DNA from: Marsupella aquatica
Lineage: Eukaryota > Plantae > Marchantiophyta
Length of the DNA: 64,000 nt
Assembly: GCA_973895155.1 (NCBI GenBank)
Contig: OZ316899.1
Span: 1,635,573 to 1,699,572 of the forward strand
Reading direction: 5' to 3'
How positions within the stretch are numbered: the first letter of the stretch is position 1; each line of letters starts with the position of its first letter. Positions 13,063 through 61,067 of the stretch are shown here, piece after piece. A program made the position numbers and the translations under genes. Below the pieces are notes generated by a model. It did no database searches. It had not been told where the DNA came from and saw only the letters and a program-made list of their open reading frames with translations.

Positions 13063-13160
13063 GGGGGCCGATCCTTTGTAGTGCACCAGCTCTCCAGCCC
13101 ACACGCCAACTTTGATCCCAGCTCTCTCGCTTTTCCTTAGTCACCTGCTATCTCCTCTGA

Positions 13161-18177: not shown

Positions 18178-19026
18178 TGTCGTGCCGAAAGATTTTGGCT
18201 CAAGAATGGCTTTTATAGGGGATGATGGGCGAGGCCTCCCGGTTGGGTTGCGTGCATGCTGACTCAGAGGGGCTCCTTGGTTGGATGGATTGAGGTTTGG
18301 TGATTGGGTGACTCGTCGTCACCAGGTTTGGTGTTTGGGTGCGTCACCAGGCTTGGAGTTTGGCTGAGCCTCACTGATGGCAACTGGCTCAGGCTGGATG
18401 GTTGGGTTTTCGATGCTACTTAAGACTTGAGCCTCGGCTCATTGAGGTTGGCGGTTGTCTATTGAGATCGGTTGAGTTGCGTTCTGTGAGTTTCGCTCCA
18501 TTCTGTGGAACTCAACTGTTGTGCGGCGGTTTTGGAACTCTGAGCGAGTGTTGGATCCAGGTGTGGAGTTTTTGATCCAGGCGGGGAATTTCTTGAGTTT
18601 GGAGTCTTGTTGATCCAGGCGGGGATTTCTCAGGTTTGGAGTCTTGTCAATCCAGGCGAGGATTTCTCGAGTTTGGAGCCTCGTTGGTCCAGGCCCGAGT
18701 TCCGTGTGAGCTATTTTAGACTAGTGGAGTAGCTAGTCAACTTTTGGTTTTGTGAGCTAAGGAGGATAGTTTTTCCGTTAGATGTTGAGTAGTTAGTCAC
18801 TCGAGGAGTTCTACTTGACAAGTTAGAGGTAGCGGCCCGCCGTAGGGCCAGCTACCAGACTCTTGCGGGCAAGCTTACTCGAGGGCACCTGTTGTAACCT
18901 TTGTGAGAAAAGTAAAAAATATAAAGGAGTGAGAGTTTGCTCCAAAAAGTGCTTGTCGCCTGTCCCAATCGCAGCCAGAAACGCGCAGTTTGCCCAAGGA
19001 GCCCCTAACTTTAAGTCCTCGCAACA
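18178..19026 (+). repeat. 5' LTR of element B (849 bp)
   Basis: TGTCGTGCC...CCTCGCAACA, a direct repeat of 26268-27115. Confidence 0.95.
18573..18703 (+). repeat. ~37-bp tandem repeat (about 3.5 copies) inside LTR B; also at ~26662-26792
   Basis: Unit (T)GATCCAGGCGGGGATTTCTYRAGTTTGGAGTCTYGT. Confidence 0.85.
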
Positions 19027-19027
19027 T

Positions 19028-19045
19028 TGGTGACCATACTGGGGA
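19028..19045 (+). other. Primer-binding site of element B, probably tRNA-Arg type
   Basis: TGGTGACCATACTGGGGA, 1 nt after the LTR. It resembles TGGCGAC...CTGGGGA tRNA-Arg PBSs after C>T changes; the tRNA identity is inferred. Confidence 0.65.
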
Positions 19046-19495
19046 TTCCTTGGGGCAATTGGATGAGATGGGTGACTATGACAAAGTTGATCGGATCTCG
19101 AGCATCGTCATGTCGATGATGAGAACCATAAGGAAGTGTGACGCCGCCGGTACGGCGAGTAATGAGTAATTCAGTCTAAACCGTGCTTAGCACGCGCGTT
19201 AGGGGTATCTTAGGCCGCTATGATTAGCATAATGATAGTAATTAGGTAGCCATTATGAGTAGGAAATCATTAGTCAATAAAGGGAATTCATGTTTGGGCT
19301 GGCGGCGCGTCGCCATTCGCACGCCCGGGTTACAAGCATGGAGGGGCCCCTCCCTCGGGTCCGTATAACAAACTTTGGGAGGCATCCACTGACACGCGGT
19401 GACTCAGACCGGCGGAGTGGCCGGTACACTACAAGCGTGAACGGCTCAGCCTATAGGCAACAAGGAGATGTCGGGGGATCGACAAGCCCTCAAGG

Positions 19496-19503
19496 TATAA
19501 AAA
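19496..19503 (+). promoter_or_regulatory. TATA box of LTR I
   Basis: TATAAAAG, 108 bp upstream of the in-frame ATG at 19604, followed by a pyrimidine-rich tract. Confidence 0.6.
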
Positions 19504-19603
19504 GGGAGCCGACCCTTTGTAGTGCACCAGTCCATCAGTCCACGCGCCAGCTTCGACCCCAGCTCTCTCGTTCTCTCTTAGTCGCCACTACTATCTCCTC
19601 TGA

Positions 19604-22255: not shown

Positions 22256-25200
22256 CGGCGGAGCAGGAATAGAATAGGGTTAGGAATAGCTAAGTCAGGC
22301 TATTGGGACAGGCACCTGCCTTAGTTACCGCAGCACTGCCATGCTGTCCAGCTTGCGTAGATTAGGATCTTCTAATAAGACACAGCCGTTTTTCGGCCTG
22401 ACAGTCAGATTAGTTAGGACCTAAGTCAGCGAATCTTTGGGCGGGAGGACACTCCGTTCCCTGGCCCTTAGTATTTAGTGCACCCCTCGGTAGAGGCAGG
22501 GGGGGTTTTTAGTCTCAGAGTTGGACATCCGTGGTATGTGCGGGGAGTCCCGACCTCTAGGAGTGAACGAGTACCAAGGGGAGGGGGTAGGACTAAGCTC
22601 GTCGGGCGAGTGCGGAGCTGGACTCCATTGTAGTGTACTCCCTCGGCCTTGAACCTATTCATTCCGGAGCTGTCGGGTCAACCAAGTGTCCGCATATGTC
22701 CCCTATGTAGTAAAATCCTTTCCCATTATTTCCTTCGTGTAAATCAAGATTGTATGCTTGTGCGCGTGTATATGTGTGTGAATCTCGTGTATAGGTGACA
22801 ACGTCGGGCCGAACACACTACCCGAGTCGTGCACGGGGTGCAGCTTGCGGGTATGTGGTTGCGAGCACGGGTTGAGGACCTGTATCATTGAATCCAGATC
22901 GAAGGCGGACAATACAAAGGCTTAGAAGTCCTTAAGCCGGGGTCGATCCTGTTATCGACTAAGGTACGTTCTGGCGGCGGAACACAAACCATACCTAGGA
23001 GATGTCCGTTTCTAACAGTAGGCGCACTTAGCGCTAGTTTATGTGAATTAGGTGCATTATGTTCTTCCCTCCCTGCCCGAACCCTCATATTTACGAAGGA
23101 TGTGCCCGTTTAAAGCTGAAGCCCGAGTTAAGGTCAAGGCTAATGACGTGACAGGAAGGAAGAGCTTGAGTCGGAAAGGGTGAACAGGGAAGTGAATAGA
23201 ACTACTCGGTGTCTCCAAGAGGTTCTAAAGGAGAATGGGCAGTTCGAGGGGAGAAATGTGACAAGCTACCTTAAGTCTTACTTGATAGAAGCAGCTGTCT
23301 ACAAGTTGGACGAAGGGACGACGGTGAAAGAGTTCATGGTGCTGGTTGAGAAGGAGTTGAATTTGACGGTGCGGACCATCGTTGAGTCAACTGAGGGCTG
23401 GGATGACTTCGACCAGAAGATGAAAGAGGAGTTCCAAGCGGAGGATGCTGATCGGGTCACGCAGGCTACCTTCTTGGATTGGGTGAATGACAGGAACAAG
23501 AAGCTGAAAGGGCCGCAAGAGCTCCTAAGGGAGTTCAAGAAAAGGGTGTCTTAGTTACCGAAGCGGGATGTGGAAATCATCGAGTTGCAGCGCTCAACGC
23601 TCTTCTTGAGGGCAGCCGATGAGGACCTTCGAGAGGAGCTTGAGAACGCAATGGAGCTGCTGGAACCTTCGAGAGTTACCTTGCCTAACGACTGGAACCA
23701 AGTTGAGAAAGCGGTGTCAAAAGTGAGCAATCGACACTAGCGGCGAGAGCTAGATAAGGAGGCTACCACTCTCGACCTAAGGCCGCCGGAAACGATATTG
23801 AGGAAAGGGAAGCGAGAACCAGCAAAGGATGAGATCAAACCATTGGTGGATGATCTCGCGGAAATGATGCAGAACCTGAAGATCTTGGTGGCACATGCGG
23901 TCGAGAATCCAAAACTGAGGGTTGGGAGTGCTCCCGAGAGGAAGCAAGAGATGCAGAGTTGGCCATGCATGTGGTGCGATAGCAAAGAGCATGACAAACG
24001 GGAGTGCCTGGACCTGAGGGAAGCTACGGATAAAGGGCTGATCAAGTTCGTCGGTGAAGTTGGTCAGAAAAATATATCGTTTGCCGATACTAAAGAGCCA
24101 ATTCCATTCAACTCCAACAAGGGAGGCATGAAGGCTTTGGCTGAGAAGCGAGCTGGGAAGCGAGGCGAAGAGGCGTCCTCTTTGCACCTGGAAGCAAATG
24201 TTTACAATGTGGAGTTGGATGGACCCGTGACGGAAATGGACAAGTTTTACAAGCGCTTGGCGGATCTGGTGCGAGAGAGATCCGGATGGAGTGACCCGAT
24301 GCTGATCAATGCGATAACGGTTGAGGTTGGGGCTAGTTGGGATGCCTCGGTCGAGTCAAAAAGGAAGAAAACCGACGAGGATGACACTCCGTCTCAATCA
24401 GGGGAACGAGAGAGGCGGGATACTTGAGACAAGGAAAGAAGGGTTAGGTTCAAAGAAGAGGAAATGAGCGAGAAAGAGCCGGAGAAAGGGAAACCGGTCA
24501 GGAAGGACCCGGGCTGGGTGCTTGGCAGGGATGTGGACCAGGCCATGTACCCCGAGGTTGTAGCTGAGAAGTTCTGGAGCCAACAGGCTCAAGGGTTTAC
24601 GAATGCCGAGTTCTTTGGCAGTATGAGGCGGGAGATCCAGGAAGCAATCTTGGAGAGATCCAAGAGGAAACGGATTTACAAAGAGGGCCCTCACACCTTG
24701 ATGGGGGAGGCTGGCGAGACGGAAATTGGAAGTTTCCAAACTTACACTGCTGGGGTGTCCATGGGTTCAGGTAGTAAGCTTGCTGGCCCCGAAGAGTCAG
24801 ACTTGGGGAAACCAAAGAGGGTCAAGTCCCTTGAAGAGGAGTTCATGAACTTGGACGATGAGTTCTTTGATGCGGAAGAGGAGCTCATGGGAACCGGAAG
24901 CGAAGCTGAGTCTGTGGCAAACTAGGACCCGACTGAAGGGGAAGAACAAGAAAGCATTACCGCACAGTCGAGGACCATTCATGTCATGGGCTCAATGAAA
25001 GGAAACGGTTATGCTTACCGAGATGGATACTGGGCTCGAGCAAGTCCGGAGAGCAAGTGCCAATTAGAAGGAATGGAAGGCAAGGTGCGGGCGCTCATTG
25101 ATACTGGCTTGGAGATCAACTTGATGGATCCAAAGGTGTTTCAAAAGGGGAATTGGCCGGTGGATAATGAGTTGCTTTGGAGTGTGAACTCGGTGAGTTC

Positions 25201-37048: not shown

Positions 37049-38820
37049 TTACAGACGTACCCGCCCTCCCGATGGCATACCCAAATCGGTGCTGCCGCTG
37101 CTACGTCTTGGCGTTGCAATATCCATGTCCCTTGTCTCCTCCATCACTAAGTCCGCCAAGTGGGGAGAAGCCCGCTCCATTTCCCCCCCTTCATCAGTGC
37201 CGATTGGAGTAGCAATATCCACCGTTAGTTGATCCCGCACCGCCCCAAGTGCCCGCAACTTTCCGATCCCTACATCAGGCACAGATGACAATGAGAAAGT
37301 GAGGGAGCGTTGCTTTTTAGCCTCTTGAGGAGCACGATCCTTCTTAGTAATTGGAGGTGTCCTCTTGTCCAGCTTCCTGGCTCTCTCCTTTCCTTTACCA
37401 GATACATACTCTTCATATTCTGACATATCAGCATCCGTGTCCCCGTGATATGAATAGGCTTCTGGGTCCGCACCATCCCCCTCACTGGGTGATTCAATCA
37501 AATCAGTAATTGTAGAGACAGCCATCCTAGCAGGCGCAAAGCTTTGTACCCCCGCATCAAGCACCCCGGATGGTAGTGTAGTAAGCGCAACCAATTCCGC
37601 TGCCCCCCCGTCTCTGCAAGGTGGCAGCATCAGCAGGTCGCCTTCTCCCTGGTCTACTCCTTTAGAAATGCTTAATTGCCCGTTCCCAACACTAGTAACC
37701 TCTGGCACGGCAGCAGCTTCCTCTCGCATCAGTGATTCCACCGCTAGTATATCCGCAGTTACCGTATTATCCTCCCTGGTAGCCACCACCTCCGCACCCA
37801 ATCTCACCCGAAGATTCATTGCTAGTTGGCTCCTCAACACCTCCTCCGGGTCTCCTTCTACTGTCTCATCCAACTCCTCCGGGGTGTCATCCGCTGCCTC
37901 CCCCTTGTTCTCCTGATCAGCCTCCGCAACAACATTCCGACCTTCCCTGCATTCCCGGGCCAAATGCCCTTTCTTATTGCACTTAAAGCAATGGAAAGGA
38001 ATGTTCTTAAACAGGATGGGTTGCCAGATAATTATATCCTCCCTAATTTTGACTCGTGCACTTTGAGGTACTTCACGTTCAGTATCCCAGAGGATACAGG
38101 CCCTGTTGTGCGGGTAGGAACTATAATCATCGCCTCGGATGTAATGCAACAGCTTTCCCAGTGATTCTGCAATCTTTATCCTGCATCCTTCAAGTACTAG
38201 CGCTTGAAAAGGAAGCTCAATCCATACTGGTAACTTAGTAAATTTTGCAGACCTTATATCAAATGAAGGGTCCCAGGGGAAGGTAAATACTAATTTCCGC
38301 TCCATGAACCACGGTGCACACTCTAAATCCAAATCCCGATGCTCTACCTTTTCAAATACAATCATATAGAAAATTTTCCCAACGAATTTCACCTACATCA
38401 CCGGCCAGCCTTGCCTCTCTACCATCCAGTCTTCCACCCATGCCCGGAATGTTGGCAGCATCGGAGTCCAGTCAGTAAAATAGCACAGCATTGCACAGTT
38501 GTACAACTGCCTTACATTGCACGCTGCTTCCTCAAGACTCCAGTCCACCGTGGTGAATAGCTTAGAGCTCCAATCACCTTTTGTGTTGTCCGCGATCTCC
38601 TTTAAAATGTTAATACATTTATCCGAGACCCCTTCCCTTTCCCGTCCATCTGCTTTCTCCTGTATTTCACGCTCAGTCGGGGCCCTAATCTCGACCAGTT
38701 GAGGTCCAATGGCCTGAGGTCCTGCACCAGGGGTTCTGGCAGGTTTAGCATCGTGCTCAATAGCCCTACTCTTTGCCGGGCCCGGTGTGATCTCGCTGTC
38801 TCTCGCCTTCCTAGGCTCAT
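37049..38820 (-). pseudogene. LINE ORF1 (DUF4283-like region plus CCHC knuckle), disrupted upstream of 38392
   Basis: APWFMERKLVFTFPWDPSF...PVWIELP and CFKCNKKGHLAREC; homologous to 59286..61067. Confidence 0.88.
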
Positions 38821-40499: not shown

Positions 40500-43400
40500 T
40501 AGCTCCCCACTGAATTGTGAAGCGTCCTCGCGAACATCTTCAAATTCATACATGTAGTATTTTTTAAGCCTATCATAATGTACTCTTACAGGGTATATCT
40601 CACCTGTGATATTTGCTAATTGAACTGACCCATTAGAGAACATCATTTCCACCTTATAACCAACGAGTGTAAAGCTTCCCTGGAAATTTTGCGTACCTAT
40701 TGTCGTAAAGTAACACAAGATCTCCAGTTTGGATACAGATTGGCCTTAACTTTTATCATATTGCTGCTTCATTAGTGTTTGACGATACTTCAGTCTTTCT
40801 GATGCTATTAATCTGGCTTCCTCCAATCCCTCCAGTTGGTACAACCTTGCTTCCTACTCTCTACCTCATTTAGACGGTCTTGTATGGTAACACGATATGT
40901 GGGAACCTCCAATTCTATTGGCACCAAGGCCTCCTGCCCAAATGTTAGGAAATAAGGTGTGTGTCCTGTGGTTGTTTTGTAAGCCAAATTGTAAGCAAAA
41001 ATAGCAGCATACAGCTTATCATCCCAATCGTCCTTGTGCTCTGATACTGTCTTATTCAGTATCTTACCAATGATTCCATTTGCTCTTTCGGTAAGTCCAT
41101 TGGCCTTCGCATGGTAGGGAGTTGTAGGCCGATGCCGAACCAAGTATTGCTCATTAAGCCGTCCGACAACATCATTCAGAAAATGAGTCCCCCAATCACT
41201 GACTAGCTCTAGAGGTGCCCCATAATGAGTAAAGATCTGCTTGTATAAAAATCGAGCAGTTGTAACAGCATCATCCTTCATCGTCGGCCTAGCCTCTACC
41301 CATTTGGTCGCATAATCAATGGCCAGGATGATGTACTTATTCCTCCAAGGATAAGTTTATGGCTTCAGAGGCCCAATGTAATCAATGCCCCATTTTTCAA
41401 ATGTGGCAAGGGGTAAAACTAGATGCAATGGATTCTACTGGCAGCCCGTGGTCCCCCCGCCCTTTGGCAAGGATCACATTCCCTAATGAATTTATGGACA
41501 TCCTTGTGCAGAGTCGGCCACCAGTAACCGGCATCCAATACCTTGCGGGTAGTCACTACTGGTGCAAAATGCCCTCCTGCCTCCTCTCCATGCATTGCTT
41601 CCATTACTTTCCGGGCATCATCTTTCTCTAAACATTGCTGGAGCTTACCAAATGCTCCCATCCAATGCAACACCCCATGAATGGTCTGGTAGCGAGCTGC
41701 CTTCCGTAAGAAGACCGCCTGTTGTTCTCTGGTCCAAGCCCTATTCAACCTTGCTGTACCAAGTAGTCGAATCCTTGTCTTGAAATAACTCCTCATCCGG
41801 AAATCGGTCGTCAATGCAATCTGATGCCGGGTTACAGGGTATCCTGGAGAAGAAATCTGCATTTGCGAGTAACTTCCCAGGTTTAACCCTTAATTCATAA
41901 TCGAATTCCTCCAATAGCAATATCCATTGGGCCACTCGTCCTGTAAGATCCGGCTTGTTTACTAGGTACTTCAAACTTTCATGATCTGTATGAAAGATCA
42001 CCCGGTAACCTAATAAGTAGTGTCAAAAAAAATTACAGGAGTAGATGACCCCCAACGCTTCCCTCTCCGTTGTTGAGTAGTTTTGCTTGGCTACAGCTAA
42101 CTGTCGGCTTGCAAAATAGATGGGGTGATCCTTCCCCTTGTCATCTAACTGGCTTAAAATAGAGCCGATGCGGAATCTTGATACATCCACAAATACATGG
42201 AAATCCTTATTCCAATCAGGTGCCATCATGACAGGTGCTTCTACCAGTTTTTGCTTCAACTGTATCACAGCCATAACTCGTTCAGGTGTTGGTTTGAAGT
42301 CTGAACTTGTTTTGAGCATGTTGGTTAATGGCAGCGCTAGTTTTTCACAATCTTGGATAAACCTTCGATAGTAACCAATACAACCCAAGAAATATCTGAC
42401 ATCTTTTATATTCCTGGGTTGCATGATATCCAACCAAACTGCCAATTTTCCTTTATCAATTTCAATACCCTTCTTGGATACCTTGTGACCAAGCAAGACC
42501 CCTTGAGTTACTCCAAAGAAACATTTATCTAGATGTAGCTTCAATCCCACCTGTCTGCATCTTTCAAAGGTTCTTTGTAAGTACTTGGCATGTTTGGACG
42601 CCTTCCCAAACACAACAATATCATCGATGAATATCTCCAGAAACTTCCGGAGGTAATCATGAAACATGTTAACCATCAACCTTTGGAACATAGCTGGTGC
42701 ATTACATAATCCGAAAGGCATCCAGTTAAACACATAGATTCCCCACTCAATAATGAAAGCAGTTTTGATCTGATCCTCCTGCCTAATTCTGATTTGATTA
42801 TATCCAGAGTAGCCATCCATGAAAGAATACAACTCATGGCTGGCTACAGTGTCTAACACCATATCAGTAAAAGGTAAAGGAAAGTGATCCTTTAAAGTGG
42901 CATCGTTCAGCTTCCTGTAATCCTGGCAAACCCTTATCTTTGGTTTGCCATCCGGTCCTGCCTTCTTGGGTACAATGACAATAGGAGACACCCAGTCCGA
43001 ATGGAGAACTGGCGTAATGAAGCCGGCCTCCACCAACTTGTCAATTTCTGCTTTTACCAACAAAAAATACTTTGGATTCATCCTCCTCGTTGGTTGCCGA
43101 AACAATTGGCTCCCAACATAAGGTCAATCCGATGCTCCCCCAATTTTGGGTCCACTCCTTGTAAATCAAGGTGACTCCAAGCAAAAACATCCTGGTATTC
43201 CACAAGTAACTCACTGATCTCCTTTTCAATTTCGGGAGCAAGATTTACCTCCCGACCCTCACCCAACTTGAGCTTCCTGTATTGCTTTGATTGAATCATG
43301 TTGATTTGCTTCTTTAGATTTGGATCTAGGTCTGCTTCCAACCTGGCCAACCTCATTCCTCCATATAGTGGAATTTTGGGCTCCGTGGTTGTTTCTATCA

Positions 43401-45647: not shown

Positions 45648-47977
45648 TGTCGCGCCCCTAACCCGGGCCTTAAATCCCTTTAGTTCCATGGGGCGACCTT
45701 GACCACCAGTAGGGGTGAGGGTTCGGGCAAGGGGGTGTGTAGTGGCCTCGATTAGCCCTAAGTTGGGCTAAGTCAATATACTTACCGGTATAATACTTAC
45801 ACAACTCGTACTAGCCATAGTATGTTTGTTTTCCACCGCTGGAATATTCCCACAGTTAGTGACTCGGACTAACTCCCGGCTTGGGGCTTTCAAGCCATCA
45901 ACGCAATAGAACCTTGTAGTATGCAATGGGTGGCAATCCCTACCATTAGTCCGCACCCAGTACATCCCTTGAAATGGCGCCTTTGTCCAGACAAAACATA
46001 CACAACACCAGCTACCCGCGATAGAATCAGGGGGAAAAGACTACATTTACTCAGCGAAGAATCAGTTTACATAGTTGACTCGACTTCTAAGGGGTCAGCA
46101 GGCCTAACGGCAGTCAATGCCCAATCTCTCCGAGGCCCCGCCCCGTGCTTGCCCAGCAAGCTCGACTCTGGCTCTCACTCCTTAGTGCACTCTGACCCTG
46201 CTCAGGCCGGGACTCCCCGTGCCTCACCTTTTCTTGCGCTGAGATAACTAAGCCCTCTCCCCCCTCCCACAGCGGAAGGGGAAGCCTAAATACTACGGTT
46301 GCGGAAAGGAACTGGAAGATACTACCTTCCAGGGTAATGCCTACTGACTAACTACCTTTTGACAAACCGGCCGCACTCCTTTGACTGGTTGATCGTCGGT
46401 GGCAGGGGCGTTGACCGGGGTGGCAGCAGCTAAGTCTACTGACCAAAATCTAGTCCATTGATGGACTCTATCCTACGTTGGCTGATCCTAACTGGTCCTG
46501 TCCTAATTCTTTCTACTGTGTCGCTAATCGACGCCTAATGACAACCCTTCTATCGTTAAGCCTAATCAGACAGATGCTGTTGACTCAACTGCCCCGCACG
46601 GCGCCTACTCAGACCCTCCGATAACCACCCCTTACGTGCGTGCTATGGTTGGGCCAGGGTTTGTCCCCTTGTCGGGGCGAGACCTCGAGCCGCCTAGATC
46701 AGAGGTGGGCCCAGGTCTTTCCCGCTGGAGGACGAGCAGAGTAACACGGTCCTGCAAGGCCTTGTTATCCCGTACCGCCTCCTCTGCCTCGTTTGCTGCC
46801 TCATCGGCCTCTACTTGGAGCCGTGCTACCTCCAGGTTGAGCTGGTTAATGGAGTCACGCTAGGCCTGGTCCTGCGCCAACAATTTATCCCGTTTGGTGG
46901 AGAGACTAACCACCTGCTGAGCTGCCTGCAGGAATTGGTTGTTGAGGTCGGTCAGGCTGGTAACCCAAGCCAAGGATTCCGAGCGCAGTTGAAGCATGGT
47001 GTCGTCCAGCTTCTTGAGATCCATTTGCGCCCCACTCAACTCCTGGGTTAGTCCGTCCCGCTGTTCGACGGTGTGGGCTAACTCCTCACGGCGGGTAGTA
47101 GCCTCCTCCTCGAGGTGTTCTACCAGCATTTGGAGGCACCCGATCTTGGTCCCCTTCGCCATGAGTTCTTCCTCCAAGCGACTTACGATCCGTGGTTGGT
47201 GCTCTAACATGAAGAAGGTTGGTTGAAAGTACGCCGAGACTTATTGTCCGATGTACGTCGCCAGCTCCCCTGACAGAGTCTGACTAAACTTCTGGACCAG
47301 GTCGTAGGCCATGGTCCCCGAGGCTACTTGGTAGTTCTCCATCCTCTTGGGTACGGGCGGTTCCTCGGGTGGGGCAACGAGCTCCTCCGTAGTCTGCAAT
47401 GGGGAGGGGAAGGTTTCTTCAGGTGGTGGAGGGATTGGAGGTGGTTGTACCGGGGGTAGCGGAGGCTCGACGGAAGGGGGCGGCGGAATTTCAACCCGGG
47501 AGGTGACGGAGTATTAGTTGGGGCCTCTGGCTTGGGGTTTGCCCGAGGCGCGGTAGTCCGCTCACTTGGGGTAGTCTCCTCCGGAGTGGGGGTGACATTA
47601 GTCGGGGCTGAGGTGGCCATATTCTTTCCCCTGGCCTCCCGCTGTGCCTTGTACCAGGCAAGGATGTTGGTGATATGACTTCCTAGGTAAGTCTTCCCCC
47701 CGATAGCCATACCTCCCTGAGCCCGCTTAAGCTCCCCCGAGAACCTTTGGTAAAAGAATTGGGCCCAGTTTCGCCGTTTGTACTGTTCCACCTGTACGAT
47801 CGTGCAGAGGGAGATCTCGGATTGTGGCTCAATCATGTGTAGGGTAGTCTGTATGAAATTAAGCTGCTCCATACAAATTAAGTTGGTGCACGACCCCTGC
47901 TTGTATCCGTTGTCTATCTTACCCTTGGGTTTGAAGTGCCGAGGTGTATACTCCTTATCCCAAATTTGGAGTTCAAC
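45648..47977 (-). mobile_element. 3' part of coding LTR E (A-related), truncated by the DNMT element
   Basis: The terminus TGTCGCGCCCCTAACCCGGG at 45648 resembles the reverse complement of the LTR A end. It contains an ORF homologous to the A/I LTR ORF. Confidence 0.7.
46633..47977 (-). pseudogene. LTR E accessory ORF, central domain to coiled-coil C-terminus
   Basis: KGKIDNGYKQGSC...LHMIEPQSEIS...RNWAQFF...GGKTYLGSHITNILAWY aligns with A KGVVDNGFLMRTC...LHMMEPRGEIS...RKWASFF...GGRAYFASHVKIILEWY. Confidence 0.8.
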
Positions 47978-48585
47978 TGCCGTGCGCATACACATCGCTA
48001 CACAACATACATCGCTTGTCACATACATCCAAACATAGTCACACGTACTGCCACATCACAAACACAAGAGAATGGAATACAAGTGGAACTCATGTCCACA
48101 CATGTCCAAAACCCACAATAATCTCCTCAACAATCGGCACAACGATCCCGGTCAACAATACCCCATCGATCCCGCACCGATCTGATCACACACGTATGTC
48201 AAGCCAACGCACCTTGCACTACTCAAGGAATCCACGTTACACAAGTGGAGCTCACAGCCACCATAGCCACTCAAGCTCCTCTCTCTCCAAGGCTCAACAT
48301 TGAAAGATGACCTTTCAATGCCTCACAAGTGAGAAGTACCCTCTCACACAAACTTGACGGAACCTTATCGGCTCATATAGCACACATACCAAACATACGG
48401 ATCTAGATAGTACGATATACTCTAACACTACCTAGAATGGTGTGACAGCTGTCGTGCGCATACACATCGCTACACAACATACATCGCTTGTCACATACAT
48501 CCAAACATAGTCACACTGCCACATCACAAACACAAGAGAATGGAATACAAGTGAAACTCATGTCCGCACATGTCCAAAACCCACA
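47978..48585 (-). repeat. 3' LTR region of the DNMT element with a ~137-bp direct repeat at both ends
   Basis: 48450-48585 is repeated at 47978-48117. An internal ...CGACA-GC-TGTCAC... junction lies at 48447-48450 (minus strand). Confidence 0.75.
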
Positions 48586-48763
48586 ATCGCCCCCCTAGCT
48601 GGGAGTAAGGTCCCCTAACTCTAGCTAGCCATGAGTTCTACAAGGTTGATATACACCTTTTTAGGTGTGAAGATCAGTAGGCCGGGTGCAAGTGAGCCCC
48701 ATCGATCACCTACCTGCAATTCATATCTGCCAAGAGAACACAAATGATAACTAGTCGGCTTCA

Positions 48764-48901
48764 TCGACACTGAGGACACAACCATGATCCACTAGGAATC
48801 ACCTGCAATGGTGGTGTCAAACATGACATGTGCCATCCTCTAGAACACTTATCACAAATCAACATAGTAGCTGCTCCCTGAGTAGATCCACACAACATAC
48901 A
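48764..48901 (-). CDS. PHD finger (C4HC3) at the integrase C-terminus
   Basis: CMLCGSTQGAATMLICDKCSRGWHMSCLTPPLQVIPSGSWLCPQC, with all eight ligands and the conserved Trp. Confidence 0.92.
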
Positions 48902-50381: not shown

Positions 50382-51810
50382 CTAACTGGTACATGGATTG
50401 TGGCTTAATCCATCTGCATCCAAGTTCACTTTTCCAGGCCTATGCACTACCTGGAAATCATACTCCTGTAACAACAATGCCCATCGTGCAAGTTTCCCTA
50501 TAAGCTTGTCAGACTCCATTAACCACTTAAGAGGCTGATGATCAGTGATCAAGGTGAAGGGGTTACCAAACAAGTAGCAACAAAAGTGTGTAACAGCCCA
50601 CATTGCTGCCAAACACTCTCCCTCATAAGAGCTATACTTAGCCTCTGCTAAATTGTTTGATCTACTGGCATAAGCCACAACAAACTCATTCCCCTCATCA
50701 TCCTTCTGAGTCAGCACTGCTCCAAGTCCTACTCCACTCCAATCAGTGTGTAGCTGAAATGGTCTGCCTAAAATGGGTCTTCTCAAAATAGGGGATGATG
50801 CCAACCTTTGCTTCAACTCCTGAAAGGCATGCTCCTGGTCATCACTCCAAATCCATTCCTGATCCAACTTAGTGAGTATGGTCAAAGGTTTAGCAAGCTG
50901 GCTAAATCCTTTAACATACCTCCTGTAGTAGCTCGCCAATCCCAAGAATGCACAAACTCTACTCACATCAGTAGGACAAGGAATCTGTGTAATGGCCTCC
51001 ACTTTAGTCTGCTGTACACCCAATCCCCCTGGGTATATAGTGTGGCCCAAATACTCAATCTGGTCTTGGAAGAACTTACACTTGCTAGGATGGAGCTTCA
51101 ACCCATGTGCTCTCAATCTCTCCAACACAATCTGCAAGTGCCGCTGATGTTCTTCCACAGTAGAAGAATAGACCAAAATATCATCAATATAACATCTGAC
51201 AAAATCCAAACCTGCAAGGATTCAATCCATGACTCTCTAGAACTCAGCTGGTGCATTCTTCAACCCAAATGGTAAGAATAACCACTGATACAAACGATCT
51301 TTGCCATAAGAATAACCACTGATACAAACGATCTTTGCCATAAGAATCAATCCCCCAGAATGTTGTCTTGGACCTGTCAGCATGTCTAATTGGAAGCTGA
51401 TGGTACCCTGCCCTCAGATCCAATGAACTAAAAACTTTTGCATGCCCCACAATATCAAAGATCTCCTCAGGTGTGGGCATGGCATATCTATCAGATTTTG
51501 TCTAGCAATTAATGGGTCTGTAATCACCACACATGCGCCTATCTATGTAATTGCCATGCACATCCTTCTTGGCTGGCATCACTGTGGCAGATGCATACTC
51601 CCCATATGAAATCTCCACCAATCTAGCCTCCAACAAATCTTGAGTTCTACTTTGAATCAGAGCTCTCTCCATGTCACTGTAATGGTATGGCCTACGAAAG
51701 ATTGACGCATCACTAGCCAATTCAATCTGAATACCAGGACCCTTTAATGTCCCCAAATCCTTCATGCTAAATGCAAAACAATTCCGGTAACTCTTCAGGA
51801 ATCGATGCAT
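50382..51810 (-). pseudogene. pol: Reverse transcriptase and RNase H, frameshifted by a 34-bp tandem duplication (51273-51340)
   Basis: RRMCGDYRPIN, SLDLRAGYHQ, PFGLKNAP, YIDD (51180-51191); LHTDWS...AYASR...TDHQPLKWL. Confidence 0.93.
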
Positions 51811-52079
51811 GCGATGTCTCTCCCCCTGTCAACTTAGGGCCAAGCTGTGGTTCCCAACTCTCCACCAAATCCCTAATATCTCTTTGTAGGGTAGAAGAGA
51901 TAGCCAATGATTGCTATTTAGCAGTAGATTGAGCAGTCCCTTCCTGCACAACAATCTGTCCAACCTTGGCCAATCCTGCCATAGGTCCATGGACTGTCTG
52001 CTCGCCCCCAATTGTGGTCAGTGTTGTCTCAGTGGACCGCAAGCTCACCAAGGGACAATCAGTAATTCCAGCAGAGTGC

Positions 52080-53060
52080 ATTCGTAACTATTCAGCTACT
52101 CCCAAGCTGATAATCCAAGTCAAACAATTCAAATCCATTGCTTAACCAAGAACCTGGCGCCGCAAACCCTCTGACACAGAGGCAACTACAGTAGTGTCAG
52201 TCAAAAATCCCATAGCACGCTCTCTCTCATCAGCAGTAGGTTCCACTAACTGCTGGAGAGCTGTGTCCCACACAAGTCCAAGGCCACCTGCTTGGAATGC
52301 ATATGAAGCAGAGTGGCTTACAAGAATGGGTAATGCACAACGTGGGCACCCAACTGCATTGACCACTGCCAATGGAGGTCTATCAGGTTGGGTCACACCC
52401 TGTGCACGACGCCCTGGATCCAAAATATCATCCACCACTAAGGCTGGTGAGCGTGGAATGTTGTCAAATGCGCGCTTCAGCACCTCACATGGGATCAAAT
52501 TAGTCCACCACAAGCGTGGACGATGTGCACAAGAACCCACACGTGCAGCATCCAATAACACAGCAGGTCCAATCCAAGACCTCACCTGGTGAACATTGGC
52601 AACAATCCAACTACGATCATCACCTAACAATGGCACATTCTCCAAAATGTATCCTGGAGACTGTGTCTGATGTAGCTGGAGATGACGCAGCACCCATAAC
52701 ATCTCCCAAAACAATGCAGAGCGTGGATCATGAAGTCCATGCCCAACGCCAGCTCTAGATTGGCCCTGACATGGCCAACCAGCAATCACCAATCAATGGG
52801 GCCAACACAATGCAGATGATCCGCCCCCAACAATGAAATATCAGCAGGTAGTGCATGCTGATAACCACGAACAACATCCATTGGCAGCAAGTGTGGATAT
52901 CTATCCACCAACATAGCCACATGTTGCAATGAGACCCTCCGTGCTGTCTCATCTGTCTCCACATACAAATAATGACGCACAGGAATTCCTTCCTGAAGAA
53001 CAACAGCCAATCCAATGCTAATCCCACCAAAAAGATCCAACAAACAAATACCCTCCGGTG
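52080..53060 (-). pseudogene. C5 cytosine DNA methyltransferase domain, DNMT3-like (canonical motif order), within the polyprotein; one 1-nt frameshift at ~52790 and stops near the end
   Basis: Motif I LLDLFGGISIG (LDLFGG at 53023-53040), II YVETD, III DI, IV VIAGWPCQGQS (PCQ at 52766-52774), VI YILENV (ENV at 52634-52642), VIII AHRPRLWWTN, IX ERERAMGF, X RRQVLG*AMD. Confidence 0.93.
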
Positions 53061-53469
53061 GATATTGCCAAGCAATAGGAGTGGTATCCAACGGTGAAAG
53101 AGTCATAGGTCCATCTGCAAGAGATTGCTCTGCTCCTGACTGTGGTGTAAAAGCATGACGCCATGCATCATGTACCAATCGTGTTGTTGCCTGTGGCAAG
53201 ACCTGTGCAGTGCCCCACACTGGTGGCACAACACTGCCAATAGGTAATCCTTGCATGATGTGCTCCTCATGAGACTCCTCCAATGGTGGAACATTTGCTG
53301 CATGCGCATTACCCTCAATCAAATCATCAGGTCCAACAATTAGACCACTGAATGCTGCCAAAGACAATGGTGTGGATTTAGAGCCTCCCACAGGTCCACT
53401 AAATCTCATTGGCAATTTGCTCAATCGAGCATCTCCTGACTGCCAATTAGGTCTATATGACATTGATTC

Positions 53470-53800
53470 CTCCCAAAAATCAAGAATAAATCCCATGGGG
53501 TAGAGCACTATACATCCCACCAACACATCATATGACTCTGCCTTAGTCAAAATAGCTCGCGCCTATATCTGTGAGCTATCTGTGGTATGACCTTCCTGAA
53601 TCCTCAATCAAGAGGTCTCCTGGTAATGTGTTGTGTAGGTGTAGGTCCCCCCAATGAAGTCTGAATGGGAAAGGGACAATTCTCCAAATCCTCTAGACGC
53701 AATCCCAATCCACATATGGCAGACTTTCCCAACATCAAGGGCTGAGCACCAGTATCCAGTAACACCCTCTCTGGCTGGTATACTGCTCCAAAAGGCCCAA
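53470..53800 (-). pseudogene. Aspartic protease
   Basis: VLLDTGAQPLML (DTG at 53748-53756) ... YDVLVG; boundaries approximate. Confidence 0.85.
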
Positions 53801-54619
53801 CTAATCGAAAGATGTCACTCCGATTATCCAATGATACAACACTAGGTTTAAACCTAGTCCTCTCAAATGCAGGGCGTGCTGGTAAATCCACCAACCTCGC
53901 TGCTGCTGCATGCCATGTCTCACTAGTAGTAGTAGGTGGCATGGTCTTCACTGCTTCAACACTACAAGCTGCTTCTGCATGGGAAGCAACCACTGGAGTG
54001 TTCTCACAGAGTGTAGCTGCCAATTTGAACACTTCTGCAGGACCAACTCCCAAGTTCAGCATGTCTGTCGTTGAAAATAATGGGGTGCGTACTATGGCAG
54101 TAGCTGCCCCCAGCAGGATACTTGTCATCCTTGCTGCATCACTACCTGATTTTGCCAACTTACCCACGTCAGGGTTTGTCCGAACCGGGTTCATAGAGGC
54201 AGTCTGAACTGTCTCTGATAATGTAAAAGATTGAGGAAGCTTTGTTTGCCGACATGCATCCCCCCTTTGTGGATCTAACTCCACTACTGCTCCTTGGGGC
54301 TCAAGAGCTTTGGCTACCCCACGTGTCAAAGCTGCTGATGCATCAATATATGCAGTGCCACACATGAATCCCATGGTGACAAGGTCTCCATTAGCTCCAT
54401 AAGATGTGAAAGGTCCATAGGATGTAGATGCCCCATCACCAGAAGTAGGTCTCACCTGGGAACTAGCCATGGCAGCTAGTTGTTGCTCCAATTGAGCAAT
54501 CTTAGCATCCTTTGGATCTATGGTTACAGCAGGGGCAACGTCACCTCCCTGTCTCCCTGCATGTGGCATGCCACGACCACGTCCACCACCTCTACCTCCT
54601 CCTCCTCTTCCCTGATCAT

Positions 54620-55869
54620 GTGTACGGGATCCTCCCCTCCGTAACTCACCTATCCTTGGTGTGTCCAAGAGCTCCACAGTGATCACACTGTCGTTGATCA
54701 GGCGCTGATGCTCCCCCTGATCCTCTATGATCTGGGAAATATCTCTGTGCATGATCCCCACCACAGGTCCAACATCCTAACTGCTGTCCAGTACAAGAGG
54801 GCACAGGTCTCTGGCTGGTAGACTCTAGTGCAGTAGGCTTCTCTATCTGGCTCTTTCGTGTAGTAGGCTGTGGTGTGGATGTAGATGCAGCCTTTGGTGC
54901 TTCCTTGGCAAATTTGGAAGTCACCGCCTTCTCATTCACCATATTGAGCTCAATGCGCTCAGAAACGGTAAAAACAACTGCTAATGTGGGATCTGCATCC
55001 CTAAGCAGAGTGACATCTCTCACTCTGCGTCGCAATTCTTTGTCCAAAATTGCATACCAAAATTGGACTGCCTGAGCCTCTATCACTCCCTTGGTGACAG
55101 TGATCAATCTACGCATACGAGTGTATGCCTCACGTAGACTCTCTCCAATCTTGCGCTAGAACTGATGGAGACCCTTCAACTTATCAATTCTCACACCCTG
55201 ATAGTTCTGCTTCAGTACCTCAAAGAATTCCACCACAGGGTTAAATGTTGGCGCAACTCCAGTTCCTGTCGCAATCACACCGGCAGGAGTAGTGGTGGAT
55301 GCTGCTAGAGTGCTGGTGGTGGATGGTGTGCCACTCTGGCTAGTGCTGCTAGAAGAAGCAACATCTATGGCAATGGGTTGGGCAGCCGCACTAGTGCCAT
55401 AGGTGATGGACACGAAATTAGGCGACCAATGCTGCCTCCATGCCTCAATCTCAACCAAATGAGCCTTCCAAAACTCATGGTAGTCATCCATGGGTGGCCC
55501 CTCCAAATGCTGAAATAATCCCTTCCATGCCATGAAAGGGGTAAACAATGTGGCATTATGCAATGTCTGCATATCGCACCACGTATCAAACTCCTGGATG
55601 AAGTCATCCAGATCAATTGTGCCAACTGCACCAGAGTATCATCGTGGGCCCTTCGTAGCCCCGTACATCTCTTCCATATCCCACAACAAAGGTGCAATCA
55701 CTTGATGACGAGGAGAACTGCTCATAGAGTCCTCGTCAGAATTACTGTTTGAAGTTGTGCTACTGACTGCTACCAATGTCGCTGGCCAAAACTGCACCCC
55801 ACTCCGAGTGAAACCGGTCCGTTGTCCATTGGGTAACCCAGCAGCACCAGAAGAATCCGTGGTGACCAA
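54620..55869 (-). pseudogene. gag: gag of the DNMT element with two degenerate zinc knuckles
   Basis: One frame over 55869-54646 with two stops; DLDDFIQEFDTWCD, ESLREAYTRMRRL, CWTCGGDH, CDHCGALGHTKDR. A small deletion in the second knuckle shifts the frame into pol. Confidence 0.8.
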
Positions 55870-56429: not shown

Positions 56430-56561
56430 GGAATAGCCTCGGGATGGATGACCTCGCGCTTTGCCTTGCGCTTGCAACTCGGAATAGTCCCGGGATGGGT
56501 GACCTTGCGCTTCGCCCTTGCGCTCGCAACTTGGAATAGTCCCAGGGTGGGTGACCTCACG
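56430..56561. repeat. ~51-52-bp tandem repeat, about 2.5 copies
   Basis: GGAATAGYCYCRGGRTGGRTGACCT... units start at 56430, 56481 and 56533. Confidence 0.8.
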
Positions 56562-56959
56562 GTTTGCCTTATGTGCGCACAGTTATGTGTGTACACAAAA
56601 CAGAATTTGTCGGGCTCAGATAGGCAACATTTGCCACTTGAAAGCAACGATTTCCTTCACAAAATGCCGTCCAACAGCATACACAATTTGGCAACATCGG
56701 CCCTCAATCCCTTCACAAAAAATGCAGCTTCAAAAGCGTCGACAGTTCACGATCGTTGACAGTTCACTTTTGCACCTGCGTCATTGGCGCCACTACAAAT
56801 CCAGCAACATTTGTGAATGTTTCTTCCTGAAAATAGCAGATCGATGCAGGAACACTCAAACATCTCCAACTGGGTTTCGTAGATCAACAACCTGCTATCA
56901 GATCTGGCAACATCTGAAATTGGAAGGAGCAATTTCCTTCATAAAAACAGCAGATCCAA

Positions 56960-57612
56960 CACTAGTGGAAAATAGTGTCCTTAATGACTAGAATGAGGAC
57001 TGAAAAACGAGTAATGTGTACCAATATATGACTAGAGCTTTTCTGTCATACCTGCCTCGTCTTTTAGGACAGTCAATTAAGACAAATGACTAAAACTCTC
57101 ACCAGTCATTTATGGTAGTCCTAAATGACACAATATTTCTGAAATGACATGTTATCCTAAATGACTGAATGAACGGCCGTCAGTCATTTAGGCATGTTTT
57201 TAATGACACATATTTAAACAAATCATATTACAACACGTGGCAACTATGCACGATTGTCACTATGTCACTATGTCATTATATGTCATTTCAGACATGTCAT
57301 AAATGACACAATAATAAATCATTTAAGGTGTCATTTAGTGTGTCATTGAAGGTGTCGTACATGATGTCATTAAAAATGTCATACAAGGTGTCATACAAGG
57401 TGTCATTAAGGGTGTCATACAGGGTGTCATTGTGAGTGTCATTGAGGGTGTCATACAGGGTATCATTGAGGGTATCATACATGGTGTCATTGAGGGTGTC
57501 ATACATGGTGTCATTGAGGGTGTCATTGAGGGTGTCATACAGGGTGTCATACAGGGTGTCATTGAGGGTGTCATTGAGGGTGTCATACAGGGTGTTTTTA
57601 AATAATGTCATT
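56960..57612 (+). mobile_element. Terminus of a CACTA (En/Spm) DNA transposon with subterminal repeats; the other end is not in the window
   Basis: TIR CACTAGTGGAAAA at 56960; dispersed AATGAC/GTCATT motifs in both orientations, then a 12-bp array. Confidence 0.78.
57326..57595. repeat. 12-bp tandem array (~22 units), variants GGGTGTCATACA and GGGTGTCATTGA
   Basis: Read directly. The reverse complement ATGACACCCTTA/CA resembles the maize En/Spm TnpA-binding 12-mer CCGACACTCTTA. Confidence 0.9.
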
Positions 57613-57799
57613 TGGGATGTATCTAAGAAGAGCTCATAGTTATTAATATTCAAAATCACATACAATGAATCCACTTAAAACCCTAAACAAAGACATCACT
57701 TTGCGCATCATCATTGTATTCAGAAATTCACACTCCAACATTCACAAGCTCTAATATAGAATAATTGAAAAAATAGAAGTCTGTTCAACATCACAATAA

Positions 57800-57922
57800 T
57801 GTAAACACTTTATTCATCTCCATCTATATACATAGTAGGTTGCTAAGGGAGTTGGTTGTGTAACCGCCTTAGTCCTAACCTTTGAGTAGACCTAACCTAA
57901 GGGGTTATAACACTCCCCCTTG
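57800..57922 (-). mobile_element. Possible PPT-LTR junction of a further (Copia-like) LTR element fragment
   Basis: Minus strand CAAGGGGGAG-TGTTATAAC at 57922-57904; the far LTR end could not be defined (left coordinate is a placeholder) and no coding sequence was found. Confidence 0.35.
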
Positions 57923-59285
57923 GATGCATCGTTTGTTGTGGTAAACATGCAGACATTGAAGGTCTAACATTGATAGGAAAATTAAGTGTTTCCTATGTTT
58001 GGTGATTGTTGAAGTGATTGTCTAGTAGGGTGATATAAGTTAGGGTGTAACCAACGTACATAGTACTTATTGAACTCAATGGTAACAACTTGCCAGTTTA
58101 GGTCTGAGGGAACTGAGGATCGAGAACTGAAACTGGCGCAAAAGCGGCACTGGCTTTTTGCTCCCCTTACGAGGTTATTGAAGGTTTTCGCTAAGGAATG
58201 ATAAGGGTCGTGTGGAGGAGGTAGATGAGTTGAAAGGGGAAGTCGATAGGCAGGTTTCTGTTCTATACCAAAGTTATGAGCTGCGATATGGTTGGGAGGA
58301 AAGGGAGATCCTGATTGAGGGGTTTGCGCAGTTGCTTAAGCTAGGTTGTAGTGCAAATATGATGAAGGAGACAAGATTGCCGCTGATGGATCCGCATGGA
58401 GGGAGCACATTACGTAGTTTGGTGTAGTGCTGCTTGCGGGAAAATCCGGTTGGACTCACTTGGATGACAGCATCGCGCGGAGGTGACTGAACGAAGGCTT
58501 AGGGTTAAGAAAGCAGAGAGGTGACAACAACATACGGAAGCACGGGGGGTAGTGTGGGAGATGATCACATCTACGTCTCTTTCTCTCTTATGTGCGAAGA
58601 CAGTGGAGATCGGGCACTACTAGGAGCAATTCAATAAAAACGTTGGTACTATCTTGGTGGCTTGCGCTGTGGGGTACCTCACTAGGATCCTTGAGGAGTA
58701 CATAGTGCTCCTCCCGGATCGTGGTGATGCATTACATAAGGGCTGGGACAGAGCAACGGAATTGGTTCGTGAGGGGTTCTTTGCGTAAGCAAGGCGTGTA
58801 TCTGGGATTACGCTGCTACTGAGTGACACAACTCGGAGTAAGTAAGTCGTGGGTCTGGGAGTGCGCTGCTACAGTGCTGCAACGGTTGGTGCCTGGGATC
58901 TGAGCAAGTAAGTCCTCCATATTACATGTGTGGTTCGGGAAGAATAGAACAACCGATACTCAGGTAAGGATTGGGACTGATTAAGTGTGAATTCCGTTAG
59001 GATTAGGAGTAATCGTGTTGAGAAATGGACTACTATGGACCTAGAGAAGGTGGGCAGCGTTATACAAATGATCGTGGCAGAATTGCTGGTGCACGGGGCT
59101 CGCGTTTTGGTTCTACGGGGGCGGATTGGCAGGGAGGTCGTGCTGGTGGTAGGGGCGGCCACACGTCGATGAGGGGTGGAGGGAGCGTTGATGCCAATAG
59201 ACAGTAGTATTCTCCCCAGGATGCACGCACTGGATACACTGCGGATGGCAATGGTATTGCTGAACCTCGACCTGAAACCTTTCAC

Positions 59286-61067
59286 TTGGCTCAGCGGCAA
59301 TGGGAAGCGGAGCAAAATTCACAGCAGCAAACTGCTCTGAATTCAAGACCAACAGATTTTGGAGCTGGCCGGAGCTTGAGCGAAAATTCTGGGAGGCTGA
59401 TCGGCACAAAGGGTGGAGTTGCTGAAGAGAGGCAACGACAGGGTGCGTCGGGTACCGGGAAGGTAAACGTAGATGCGGAGATGCTTGAGGAGGAAGAACC
59501 TGAGGAAACATCAGAGGAGTGCATTCGGATCCTTAAAGAAATTGGTGAGCATTCCAAAGATGATTGGCACGAGAAGCTATATACCACGGTTGAATGGAGC
59601 CTGGATGAAGCAGCTAGTAATGCTAGGAAGTTATACAACTGTATTCTATGCTTCTTCACGGACAGAACTCCTTTGCTCCCGGTTTTTCGAGAGTGGGTTG
59701 AGGAAACGATGGTGCAAGAGATGAATTGGCAGGTTCTGCAAGTTAAGTACGTAGGAAAGAATTTCTACTTGGTAGTATTTGCACAGCCTGATCATCGGGA
59801 CGCAGCGTTGGAGTATGCACCGTGGTTCATGGAACGCAGGTTTGTCTATACCTTTGCGTGGGATCCCTCGTTTGACATCAAGAATGAATCATACACTAAA
59901 TTGCCGGTCTGGATTGAGATTCCATACAGAGCATTAGTACTTGAAGGATACAGGAGGAAGATTGCGGAATCCTTTGGACAGTTGCTGTATTACATTCAGG
60001 GGGATGAGTTCAGCTCCTACCCGCATGATAGGGCCTGCATTCTATGGGACACTGAAAGGGAGATCCCGGCTAGCGCTCGGATTAGAATTAGAGATGACAT
60101 CATAATATGGCAGCCTGTTACATTCAGGAACATCCCGTATCATTGCTTTAAATGCAACCTTAAAGGTCATCTAGCTAGAGACTGTGTCATGGGAAGCACG
60201 GAAGTAGAGAATGAAGCTCCCGGATTATCTAAGAAGACTTTGGACCCGGCGGCTGCCCCTTATCGAGCGGCTGAAGTGGCAACAGATCCTCCTTCAGCGG
60301 CAGCTGAGGCACGTATTGATGGTCTTCAGTATAAGCCTGGTATGGTCCCAGTTGATACTGGAGTGGAAGCAGACATATTGCAGGTGGAAAATATTCTGTT
60401 GCAGGCTAGTGGTACACAAGGAGGAAATATTGGGGCTGCACCTGTGACTGTCGAAGATCAGAATGGTAGCAGGCCGTTTGGGGTTTTCAGGTTGGGGGTC
60501 GGACCCTCCTTTCCTGAGGACCCTGGGGATGCTGGTGTGCAGCTAGACACTTTGGGGCTTGACGAGAGGGGGACAAGGGCCAATGGTGAAGGAGTTGACG
60601 GGGGAAGGAGCCTGGGGGAATCTAGGCCGGACACTTTGCTGCAGTCGGGGACTGTTGGTGCTGATGACTACTCATTTCATGGGGATACTGACATGGAGCT
60701 CTCAGAGTACGAAGAATACATATCACGAAGTCAAACTAAACTTAGAGCAAGGAAACAAGAGCTGAGAACCCCCCCAAATCGCAAATTGGAAAAAGATAAG
60801 ATGGAAGGGAAAAAACAGCGCTCCTTAAGCTTCTCACATGAGCCGTTGTTGGTTGCAGAGGGAAGTGGACCGGGAGGTGTTGCTGCTGCCACTGAGGAGG
60901 CTGGGGAGATAGCGGAACATACGGGTGGGTCTGCCAAGCGCTTGACTCCACTGGTTGCTTCTTCTCCTGTGGGGACTCGGATCCTAGGTAACCCGGAACT
61001 GGGGGTCACTCCCCCGGCTGAAAGAATTGGCAGGGTGGCCTCACCTGGGGCTCGTCCTCGTATCTAG
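59286..61067 (+). CDS. LINE ORF1, nucleic-acid-binding protein with a CCHC knuckle (true start uncertain)
   Basis: Open 593-aa frame; APWFMERRFVYTFAWDPSF...PVWIEIP and CFKCNLKGHLARDC. Confidence 0.88.
   Translation: MAQRQWEAEQNSQQQTALNSRPTDFGAGRSLSENSGRLIGTKGGVAEERQRQGASGTGKVNVDAEMLEEEEPEETSEECIRILKEIGEHSKDDWHEKLYTTVEWSLDEAASNARKLYNCILCFFTDRTPLLPVFREWVEETMVQEMNWQVLQVKYVGKNFYLVVFAQPDHRDAALEYAPWFMERRFVYTFAWDPSFDIKNESYTKLPVWIEIPYRALVLEGYRRKIAESFGQLLYYIQGDEFSSYPHDRACILWDTEREIPASARIRIRDDIIIWQPVTFRNIPYHCFKCNLKGHLARDCVMGSTEVENEAPGLSKKTLDPAAAPYRAAEVATDPPSAAAEARIDGLQYKPGMVPVDTGVEADILQVENILLQASGTQGGNIGAAPVTVEDQNGSRPFGVFRLGVGPSFPEDPGDAGVQLDTLGLDERGTRANGEGVDGGRSLGESRPDTLLQSGTVGADDYSFHGDTDMELSEYEEYISRSQTKLRARKQELRTPPNRKLEKDKMEGKKQRSLSFSHEPLLVAEGSGPGGVAAATEEAGEIAEHTGGSAKRLTPLVASSPVGTRILGNPELGVTPPAERIGRVASPGARPRI

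Follow-up and report, generated by a model that had tools for sequence, protein, structure and literature searches.

A decayed Gypsy retrotransposon from the liverwort Marsupella aquatica belongs to a family with a DNMT3-like cytosine methyltransferase upstream of a conserved in-frame stop

What a retrotransposon gains from a cytosine methyltransferase of its own has been a question since 2018, and it is raised again by a 64,000-nucleotide stretch of Marsupella aquatica DNA (contig OZ316899.1, positions 1,635,573 to 1,699,572; hereafter the window), in which C5-methyltransferase motifs lie inside a Gypsy element. That DNMT-bearing retrotransposons exist was already known, as the original prediction acknowledged. 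KnitGypsy-Dnmt3 of Klebsormidium nitens is a Gypsy element with an unpermuted, intronless DNMT3-like domain under purifying selection and DIRS-like split repeats, its DNMT sharing an ORF with RT and RNase H (PMC5890265; this and the other papers cited are drawn on for the portions of their text that were available). The Klebsormidium enzyme, the sole Gypsy example, showed no methylation in yeast, a result that its authors call inconclusive (PMC5890265). SymbioDIRS-Dnmt3 and SymbioLINE-Dnmt of Symbiodinium are also retroelements bearing DNMTs, and in yeast the enzymes of the DIRS elements carry out de novo CG methylation (PMC5890265); these are tyrosine-recombinase or LINE elements, whereas the family described here has a protease, a DDE integrase, a PHD finger and target duplications. 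This kind of element is known, and what is added here is a conserved stop of the leaky type, a second position for the methyltransferase domain and permuted ends that integrase may cut. Our reading of the locus as a whole, which we consider likely, is that it is a decayed copy of a bryophyte Gypsy family with Gag-PR-DNMT as its bulk product, a leaky stop and a probable capacity to methylate its own cDNA.

The coding part of the element spans 55677 to 48764 on the minus strand and comprises, in this order, gag, protease, C5-methyltransferase, RT, RNase H, integrase and a PHD finger. Its coding features are as follows.

54649..55677, minus strand: gag, the start of ORF1, interrupted by two stops, with zinc-knuckle-like motifs close to its end
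53435..53860, minus strand: aspartic protease, DTG at 53756-53748, limits approximate, frameshift near 53607, weak match to PF13650 (E 0.014)
52082..53079, minus strand: DNMT3-like C5 cytosine methyltransferase domain, motifs I-X unpermuted, PF00145, frameshift near 52790, stops at 52144 and 52090
51917..52081, minus strand: C-terminal linker of ORF1, spanned by the alignment with protein P0001, which has the same final codon, and seen in the tails of 10 stored proteins
51908..51916, minus strand: in-frame conserved amber stop followed by CAA TCA (CARYYA readthrough context), the same arrangement being found in relatives L034, L035, L081 and L039 and in the moss-type family
50394..51860, minus strand: RT (YIDD at 51191-51180) and RNase H, the start of ORF2, PF00078, PF17917 and PF17919
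49330..50040, minus strand: DDE integrase, limits approximate, PF00665 (E 1.8e-13), frameshifts near 49877 and 49320
48764..48901, minus strand: C-terminal PHD finger, PF00628 (E 2.3e-11)

Reading the three frames through the whole element gave about seven frameshifts and about 11 premature stops, mostly transitions, and the RT-RNase H part carries a frameshift near 51825 together with a 34-bp duplication at 51273-51347. This copy is dead, being unable to encode a working protein. The original prediction had described the lesions as small, which understates the decay of the element as a whole. The DNMT domain has three breaks, namely the two stops at 52144 and 52090 and the frameshift near 52790, and none of them is shared with other copies, because contigs from four runs differ at these places (among 40 of 344 difference rows). 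Elsewhere in the 64-kb window no methyltransferase match was found.

All of the methyltransferase motifs that had been placed between protease and RT were recovered on the minus strand in canonical order (I 53040-53011; IV, GWPCQGQS, 52780-52757; VI 52645-52634; VIII 52528-52499; IX 52228-52205; X 52162-52145), unpermuted and with the catalytic Cys, ENV and RxR. The C-terminal half of the domain matched PF00145 (E 3.4e-7) at 30.4 bits, above the cut-off of 22, while its N-terminal ORF, taken alone, matched no Pfam family. Structural work was carried out on the intact relative L034 and not on the window copy. A sequence search of the PDB with the L034 domain returned DNMT3A/B/C as the first 29 of 45 matches, followed by bacterial enzymes, and a model of the domain (pLDDT 95.1, built from a 65-row alignment) was predicted to resemble DNMT3A/B best (TM 0.70-0.71; Z 29.0, rmsd 2.6 A over 278 residues), with lower modelled matches to a bacterial CpG enzyme (Z 25.8) and M.HhaI (Z 24.8). 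The catalytic domains of mammalian DNMT3A/3B/3C are therefore the closest solved structures by sequence and by fold, although identity is about 25% and the retroelement enzyme has no PWWP or ADD domain. The motifs, the sequence matches and the fold of the relative together confirmed that the window domain is an unpermuted DNMT3-like C5-methyltransferase inside a Gypsy element, lacking the permutation of DRM enzymes, as had been proposed. The label DNMT3-like rests on these three lines because the DNMT trees contain retroelement domains and one long outgroup only, and no host DNMTs. At the catalytic motif, GWECQ in place of GWPCQ was the commonest form among the 150 representatives listed (60 of them), and it was also noted for L047 and L051.

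Purifying selection on the domain was assessed from dN/dS, which the prediction had named as a check. DNMT values were 0.085 for L034 against L081, 0.143 for L034 against L035 and 0.14-0.16 for the window against four moss-type loci; overall, six of seven unsaturated between-lineage pairs gave 0.085-0.16 and the seventh 0.22, between-family dS being 1.4-2.0 and near saturation in the deeper pairs. These between-lineage values are not near 1. The other domains of the L034-L081 pair gave 0.035 (RT) and 0.098 (protease), and decayed sister copies 0.61-0.76 for the DNMT. An RT value of 0.34 for L034 against L035 was left out because a frame change in L035 has probably distorted it.

The methyltransferase had been predicted to form part of a single ancestral polyprotein of about 2370 aa, with each in-frame stop a lesion. 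This proved correct for the stops at 52144 and 52090, where nearly all other depth differs, but not for the TAG at 51916-51914, which is a conserved feature of the family and at which the ORF of the window family ends, after the DNMT. CAA TCA comes directly after this TAG, which shares its frame with the RT start as far as the frameshift near 51825, and protein P0001 terminates at precisely this TAG codon. No variant at 1% or more was present at 51908-51923 in any of the four runs, with depth similar to that of neighbouring bins. The closest relatives, the moss-type family (43 loci at an identity of 55% or more), carried TAG at 22 junctions, TAA at nine and TAC at one; seven loci escaped the pattern, the stop being visible in two of these when read, and four were truncated. 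Stops thus occupied 31 of the 32 matched moss-type junctions and a Gln codon none, and in all 21 linkers of 378 nt the stop stood at codon 99. The intact relative L034 consists of two abutting in-frame ORFs, one of 1369 aa for gag-PR-DNMT and one of 1047 aa for RT-RH-IN-PHD, and L081, intact from the middle of ORF1 onward, has the same two-ORF in-frame arrangement. A related second family from moss metagenomes has spread without the stop, nine of 15 in-frame linkers being open and the others having scattered stops.

The hexamers that follow the TAG, CAATCA in the window and L081, CAGTTA in L034 and L035 and CAACCA in L039, all fit CARYYA, a context that would follow a random stop with a chance of about 1 in 512. 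CAR-YYA is the readthrough signal of TMV, and single in-frame stops also occur in MuLV gag-pol, SIRE1 pol-env and Tca2 (PMC2194720). Together, the conserved stop and its context suggest that Gag-PR-DNMT is the bulk product, and we consider it very probable, as a prediction from sequence, that low-frequency readthrough of the stop yields RT-RH-IN-PHD. In contrast to those systems, the stop here sits after Gag-PR-DNMT, so that the captured enzyme falls within the abundant product, and no stable structure was predicted 3' of it (z 0 to -1.6).

The lack of such a structure would also fit an alternative in which the stop is conserved and ORF2 is made by another route, such as splicing of the linker (as in Ogre elements), re-initiation or an internal promoter, with the DNMT still produced at the level of Gag. 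The moss-type junction lends this some weight, since its context, CAACCC, departs from CARYYA at +6 and an ATG mostly lies two codons downstream, and Tca2, for which no local readthrough was seen in yeast, is a precedent for such a stop acting otherwise (PMC2194720). In the window, L034 and L081, however, no ATG directly follows the stop; the frame is maintained across it in linkers of both 378 and 492 nt, and CAR follows it in five divergent junction types. We therefore regard this alternative as unlikely, and prefer readthrough. The linkers themselves gave dN/dS values of 0.2-0.6, a weak signal from 23-104 codons.

On the readthrough reading, ORF1 would encode Gag, protease and the DNMT3-like enzyme and terminate at the conserved amber stop, with low-frequency readthrough adding RT, RNase H, integrase and the PHD finger. 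The methyltransferase would then be made and packaged at the level of capsid, and the packaged enzyme would methylate the element's own new cDNA. These parts differ in strength: release by the protease and packaging seem fairly likely, cDNA as the substrate is only somewhat favoured, and a preference for CG is a suggestion to which we give slightly less than even credence. The conserved stop serves as a quantitative clue, in that it ties the enzyme to Gag and not to RT or integrase. A different role for the domain, either as a module that binds DNA or serves as a decoy, or as an enzyme that works together with the PHD finger on the host's chromatin at the site of insertion and not on cDNA in the particle, is less probable still than ORF2 made by another route. 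The inactivity of the Klebsormidium domain in yeast (PMC5890265), the variability of motif IV across the superfamily and the presence of a PHD finger alongside the DNMT in most long relatives are in keeping with such a role, but the 65-row alignment shows almost no variation at the catalytic Cys, at Glu-Asn and at Gly, dN/dS is about 0.1 across the entire domain, and in the window clade the stop links the DNMT to Gag and not to integrase-PHD. Methylation of particle cDNA thus remains our preferred reading. Low CpG in the element (observed/expected 0.30, against 0.48-0.90 in three other elements of the window) was considered as a sign of self-methylation and rejected, because another 2-kb bin of the window is equally low (0.18); the value for intact L034 was 0.55. 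Intact relatives (L034; L081) and the genetic model Marchantia, which has an open gag-PR-DNMT ORF, Mp_4g09160, in a cluster of 18 members, make activity, sequence context and role testable. Marchantia met1 material, moreover, already exists and has de-repressed transposons (10.1101/363937).

A single long polyprotein in which the 51916 TAG arose as a chance lesion does describe other branches than that of the window family, since P0068 and P0070-P0073 are single ORFs of 2318-2374 aa, and the prevalence of transitions among the window lesions would suit it, but for this element it is highly improbable given that the stop is invariant in four runs, is never replaced by Gln and is retained in intact relatives. 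Three layouts can be distinguished. In type I the DNMT precedes RT with a stop between them, a label that for the P-proteins reflects where the protein ends and not DNA. Type II, a single ORF with the DNMT before RT, comprises P0068, P0070-P0073, Closterium P0189 and the second moss-metagenome family, and in type III (P0075-P0082, Scenedesmus and Cymbomonas) the DNMT lies between RNase H and integrase. Among the best 150 representatives the DNMT came after RT or RNase H in 50 and before RT in six. All trees were quick trees with SH-aLRT support only. Monophyly of type III was supported at 85 in the DNMT tree and 99 in the RT-RH tree, and that of type I at 95 and 96 (the latter with five rows), whereas in another DNMT tree, with few outgroups, the type I sequences fell apart into two branches at a fork that is open, so that the stop may have arisen once or more than once. 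The simplest reading of these sequences is that one capture of a DNMT was followed by later relocation. As a separate observation, in the branch of P0241 of Klebsormidium, P0058, P0060 and P0062 the protein ends five to six residues past the DNMT, which, read from protein ends alone, hints at a second recoding site.

The Klebsormidium comparison is close in other respects. Like KnitGypsy-Dnmt3, the window family has the PR-RT-RH-IN order of Gypsy elements, an embedded, unpermuted and intronless DNMT3-like domain, split repeats and DNMT Ka/Ks mostly below 0.2, but in the window family a conserved stop divides the DNMT from RT-RNase H, and DNMT and RT in the same ORF, as described for KnitGypsy-Dnmt3, are found in other branches of relatives. 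The Klebsormidium protein GAQ93235.1 (P0241), a gag-protease-DNMT protein among the best 150 matches, ends 6 aa past the domain in a record marked partial. The window and Klebsormidium domains belong to one searchable family, in a tree with open deep forks and a single outgroup; the nearest relatives of the window element, however, are bryophyte elements, and the Klebsormidium protein lies on another branch. Gypsy-7a_cRei of Chlamydomonas also has a PHD finger in a Gypsy polyprotein (PMC9940879), but in the available text no methyltransferase is among its listed domains and it has two near-complete LTRs.

The family is broad. The C-terminal half of the domain retrieved 64 longer homologues, of which 19 came from named land plants (15 Marchantia, one Calypogeia and three Sphagnum), and P0001 was 84% identical to the window over this half. 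The window domain grouped with Marchantia, Calypogeia and moss-type sequences in one clade with support of 100, which, together with a nearby LINE ORF bearing DUF4283, points to a land-plant, probably bryophyte, host. Matches to gag numbered 20, with the window gag reaching 57% in alignment with residues 1-346 of Marchantia P0004; none of the 20 was seen to be a close relative without the DNMT, several being too short or gapped to tell and the loci having been selected through their DNMT. A metagenome scan of about half of the collection gave 301 confirmed stretches, the best 80 of which were taken as the L-labelled loci, selected by DNMT presence, and about 1200 stretches are estimated. A full HMMER scan yielded 465 clusters at E 1e-10 or better, the best 150 being listed; named hosts among 30 proteins looked up were Scenedesmus, Closterium (two), Klebsormidium, Calypogeia and Marchantia, and a related DNMT is also present in Cymbomonas. 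Viral contigs gave weak, unrelated methyltransferase matches or none. These results support the DNMT as a trait of the whole family under purifying selection and not a one-off insertion, and the extension of DNMT-bearing elements to land plants, which the prediction had raised, is solid, the full range being much wider than it had foreseen. That a retrocopy of a host DNMT3 was captured a single time, or that the assembly is at fault, is scarcely credible given these numbers of relatives, the thousands of contigs that map to the stretch in three of four runs and the grouping of the same architectures by RT-RH and DNMT trees.

In the literature, a 2025 survey gives the range as streptophytes and dinoflagellates, with no detail in the text available (PMC12344493). 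Titles and the openings of abstracts, with subscription journals mostly outside the scope, contained no description of such elements in land plants or chlorophytes, of readthrough or of target duplications, and neither did the available portions of PMC6317226, PMC11982613, PMC10952607, 10.1101/363937 and PMC9940879 describe such elements, readthrough or duplications. Retroelement DNMT ORFs can swell host DNMT counts in bryophyte annotations. Two eukaryotic retroelement sequences, L081 and protein P0023, are assigned to metagenome bins of bacteria, one a cyanobacterial MAG and one labelled Obscuribacterales; contamination is the likely cause, and such sequences could be mistaken for a bacterial DNMT.

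The ends of the element, which along with the readthrough context the original prediction had overlooked, are also unusual. They comprise the following features.

48588..48603, minus strand: polypurine-tract-like G run directly preceding repeat A, read by eye
48450..48587, minus strand: repeat A, copy 1, ending GACA, 94.5% to copy 2
48443..48453, minus strand: internal head-to-tail att junction GACA-NN-TGTCA between A and B
48120..48447, minus strand: repeat B, assigned by its position between the A copies
47974..48119, minus strand: repeat A, copy 2, the likely 3' end of the element, its terminal letters worn

Two complete flanking LTRs, as in canonical LTR retrotransposons, are absent, and the repeats are permuted. 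The window copy retains A-B-A only, and a sensitive blastn search of the window found no 5' twin of repeat B. Such twins are present in seven relatives (L002, L038, L048, L051, L052, L062 and L071), five of which have the full B-coding-A-B-A order (L038, L048, L051, L052 and L062), while L071 has a shortened last A and the seventh locus is cut off. A similar G run precedes the first A in seven relatives shown. The A|B junction, GACA-NN-T(G/A)TCA, was found in all 13 sequences (the window and 12 loci) and also in L081, and the relatives start with TGTCA and finish with GACA, that is, with TG..CA ends. A 4-bp target duplication was present in five of six relatives, three of them with two to four candidate ends. 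Visual inspection of the sequence following the 5' B revealed no tRNA primer-binding site.

The combination of permuted repeats and 4-bp duplications is a sign that integration follows an unusual route; with the TG..CA ends and the joined att site, it suggests that A and B together make up an LTR and that integrase opens a circular cDNA. DIRS and Ngaro elements, in contrast, use a tyrosine recombinase and make no target duplication; neither ORF of L034 matched a tyrosine recombinase, and an rve integrase was found. However, all seven relatives with a 5' repeat have one permutation only, where a two-LTR circle opened evenly would yield two, and most B|A joins are precise, which makes a templated route of the split-repeat, DIRS-like kind equally plausible. 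Each route requires a pre-joined att site. We lean slightly towards the first route, in which integrase would cut circular cDNA at the internal att junction before integrating it. The circular appearance of L081 (a terminal overlap of 127 bp) was set aside as evidence of a circle, as it may arise from assembly. A far more tentative and on balance doubtful extension is that these elements represent an old, green-plant-wide lineage of self-methylating Gypsy elements, from chlorophytes to liverworts and mosses, with readthrough that loads the enzyme into particles at capsid level in bryophytes, methylated circular cDNA and an att site inside the LTR opened by the DDE integrase; if true, this would be a replication route unlike that of canonical LTR elements, and testable in Marchantia. 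Structure-based LTR finders require two flanking LTRs (PMC6317226), and finders of this kind would overlook such permuted elements.

Several minor features were noted in the remainder of the window. A 12-bp unit arrayed 23 times fills 57319-57595, the expected place of the 5' repeat B, and at about 57700-57920 on the minus strand a purine tract and TG start, read by eye, resemble a Copia-type 3' LTR. A 52-bp unit is repeated 2.7 times upstream of gag (56430-56570). Two further Gypsy elements, at 9854-12231 (plus strand) and 40856-43153 (minus strand), served as an outgroup. A long direct duplication with a spacing of about 6.5 kb and 73-89% identity spans 12700-23200, and repeat pairs of 92-98% identity at 28280-29760/44047-45524 and 18178-18659/26268-26748 are possibly LTRs of other elements. 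An open LINE ORF1 of 619 aa with DUF4283 lies at 59208-61067 on the plus strand, with an inverted relative near 37950-38407.
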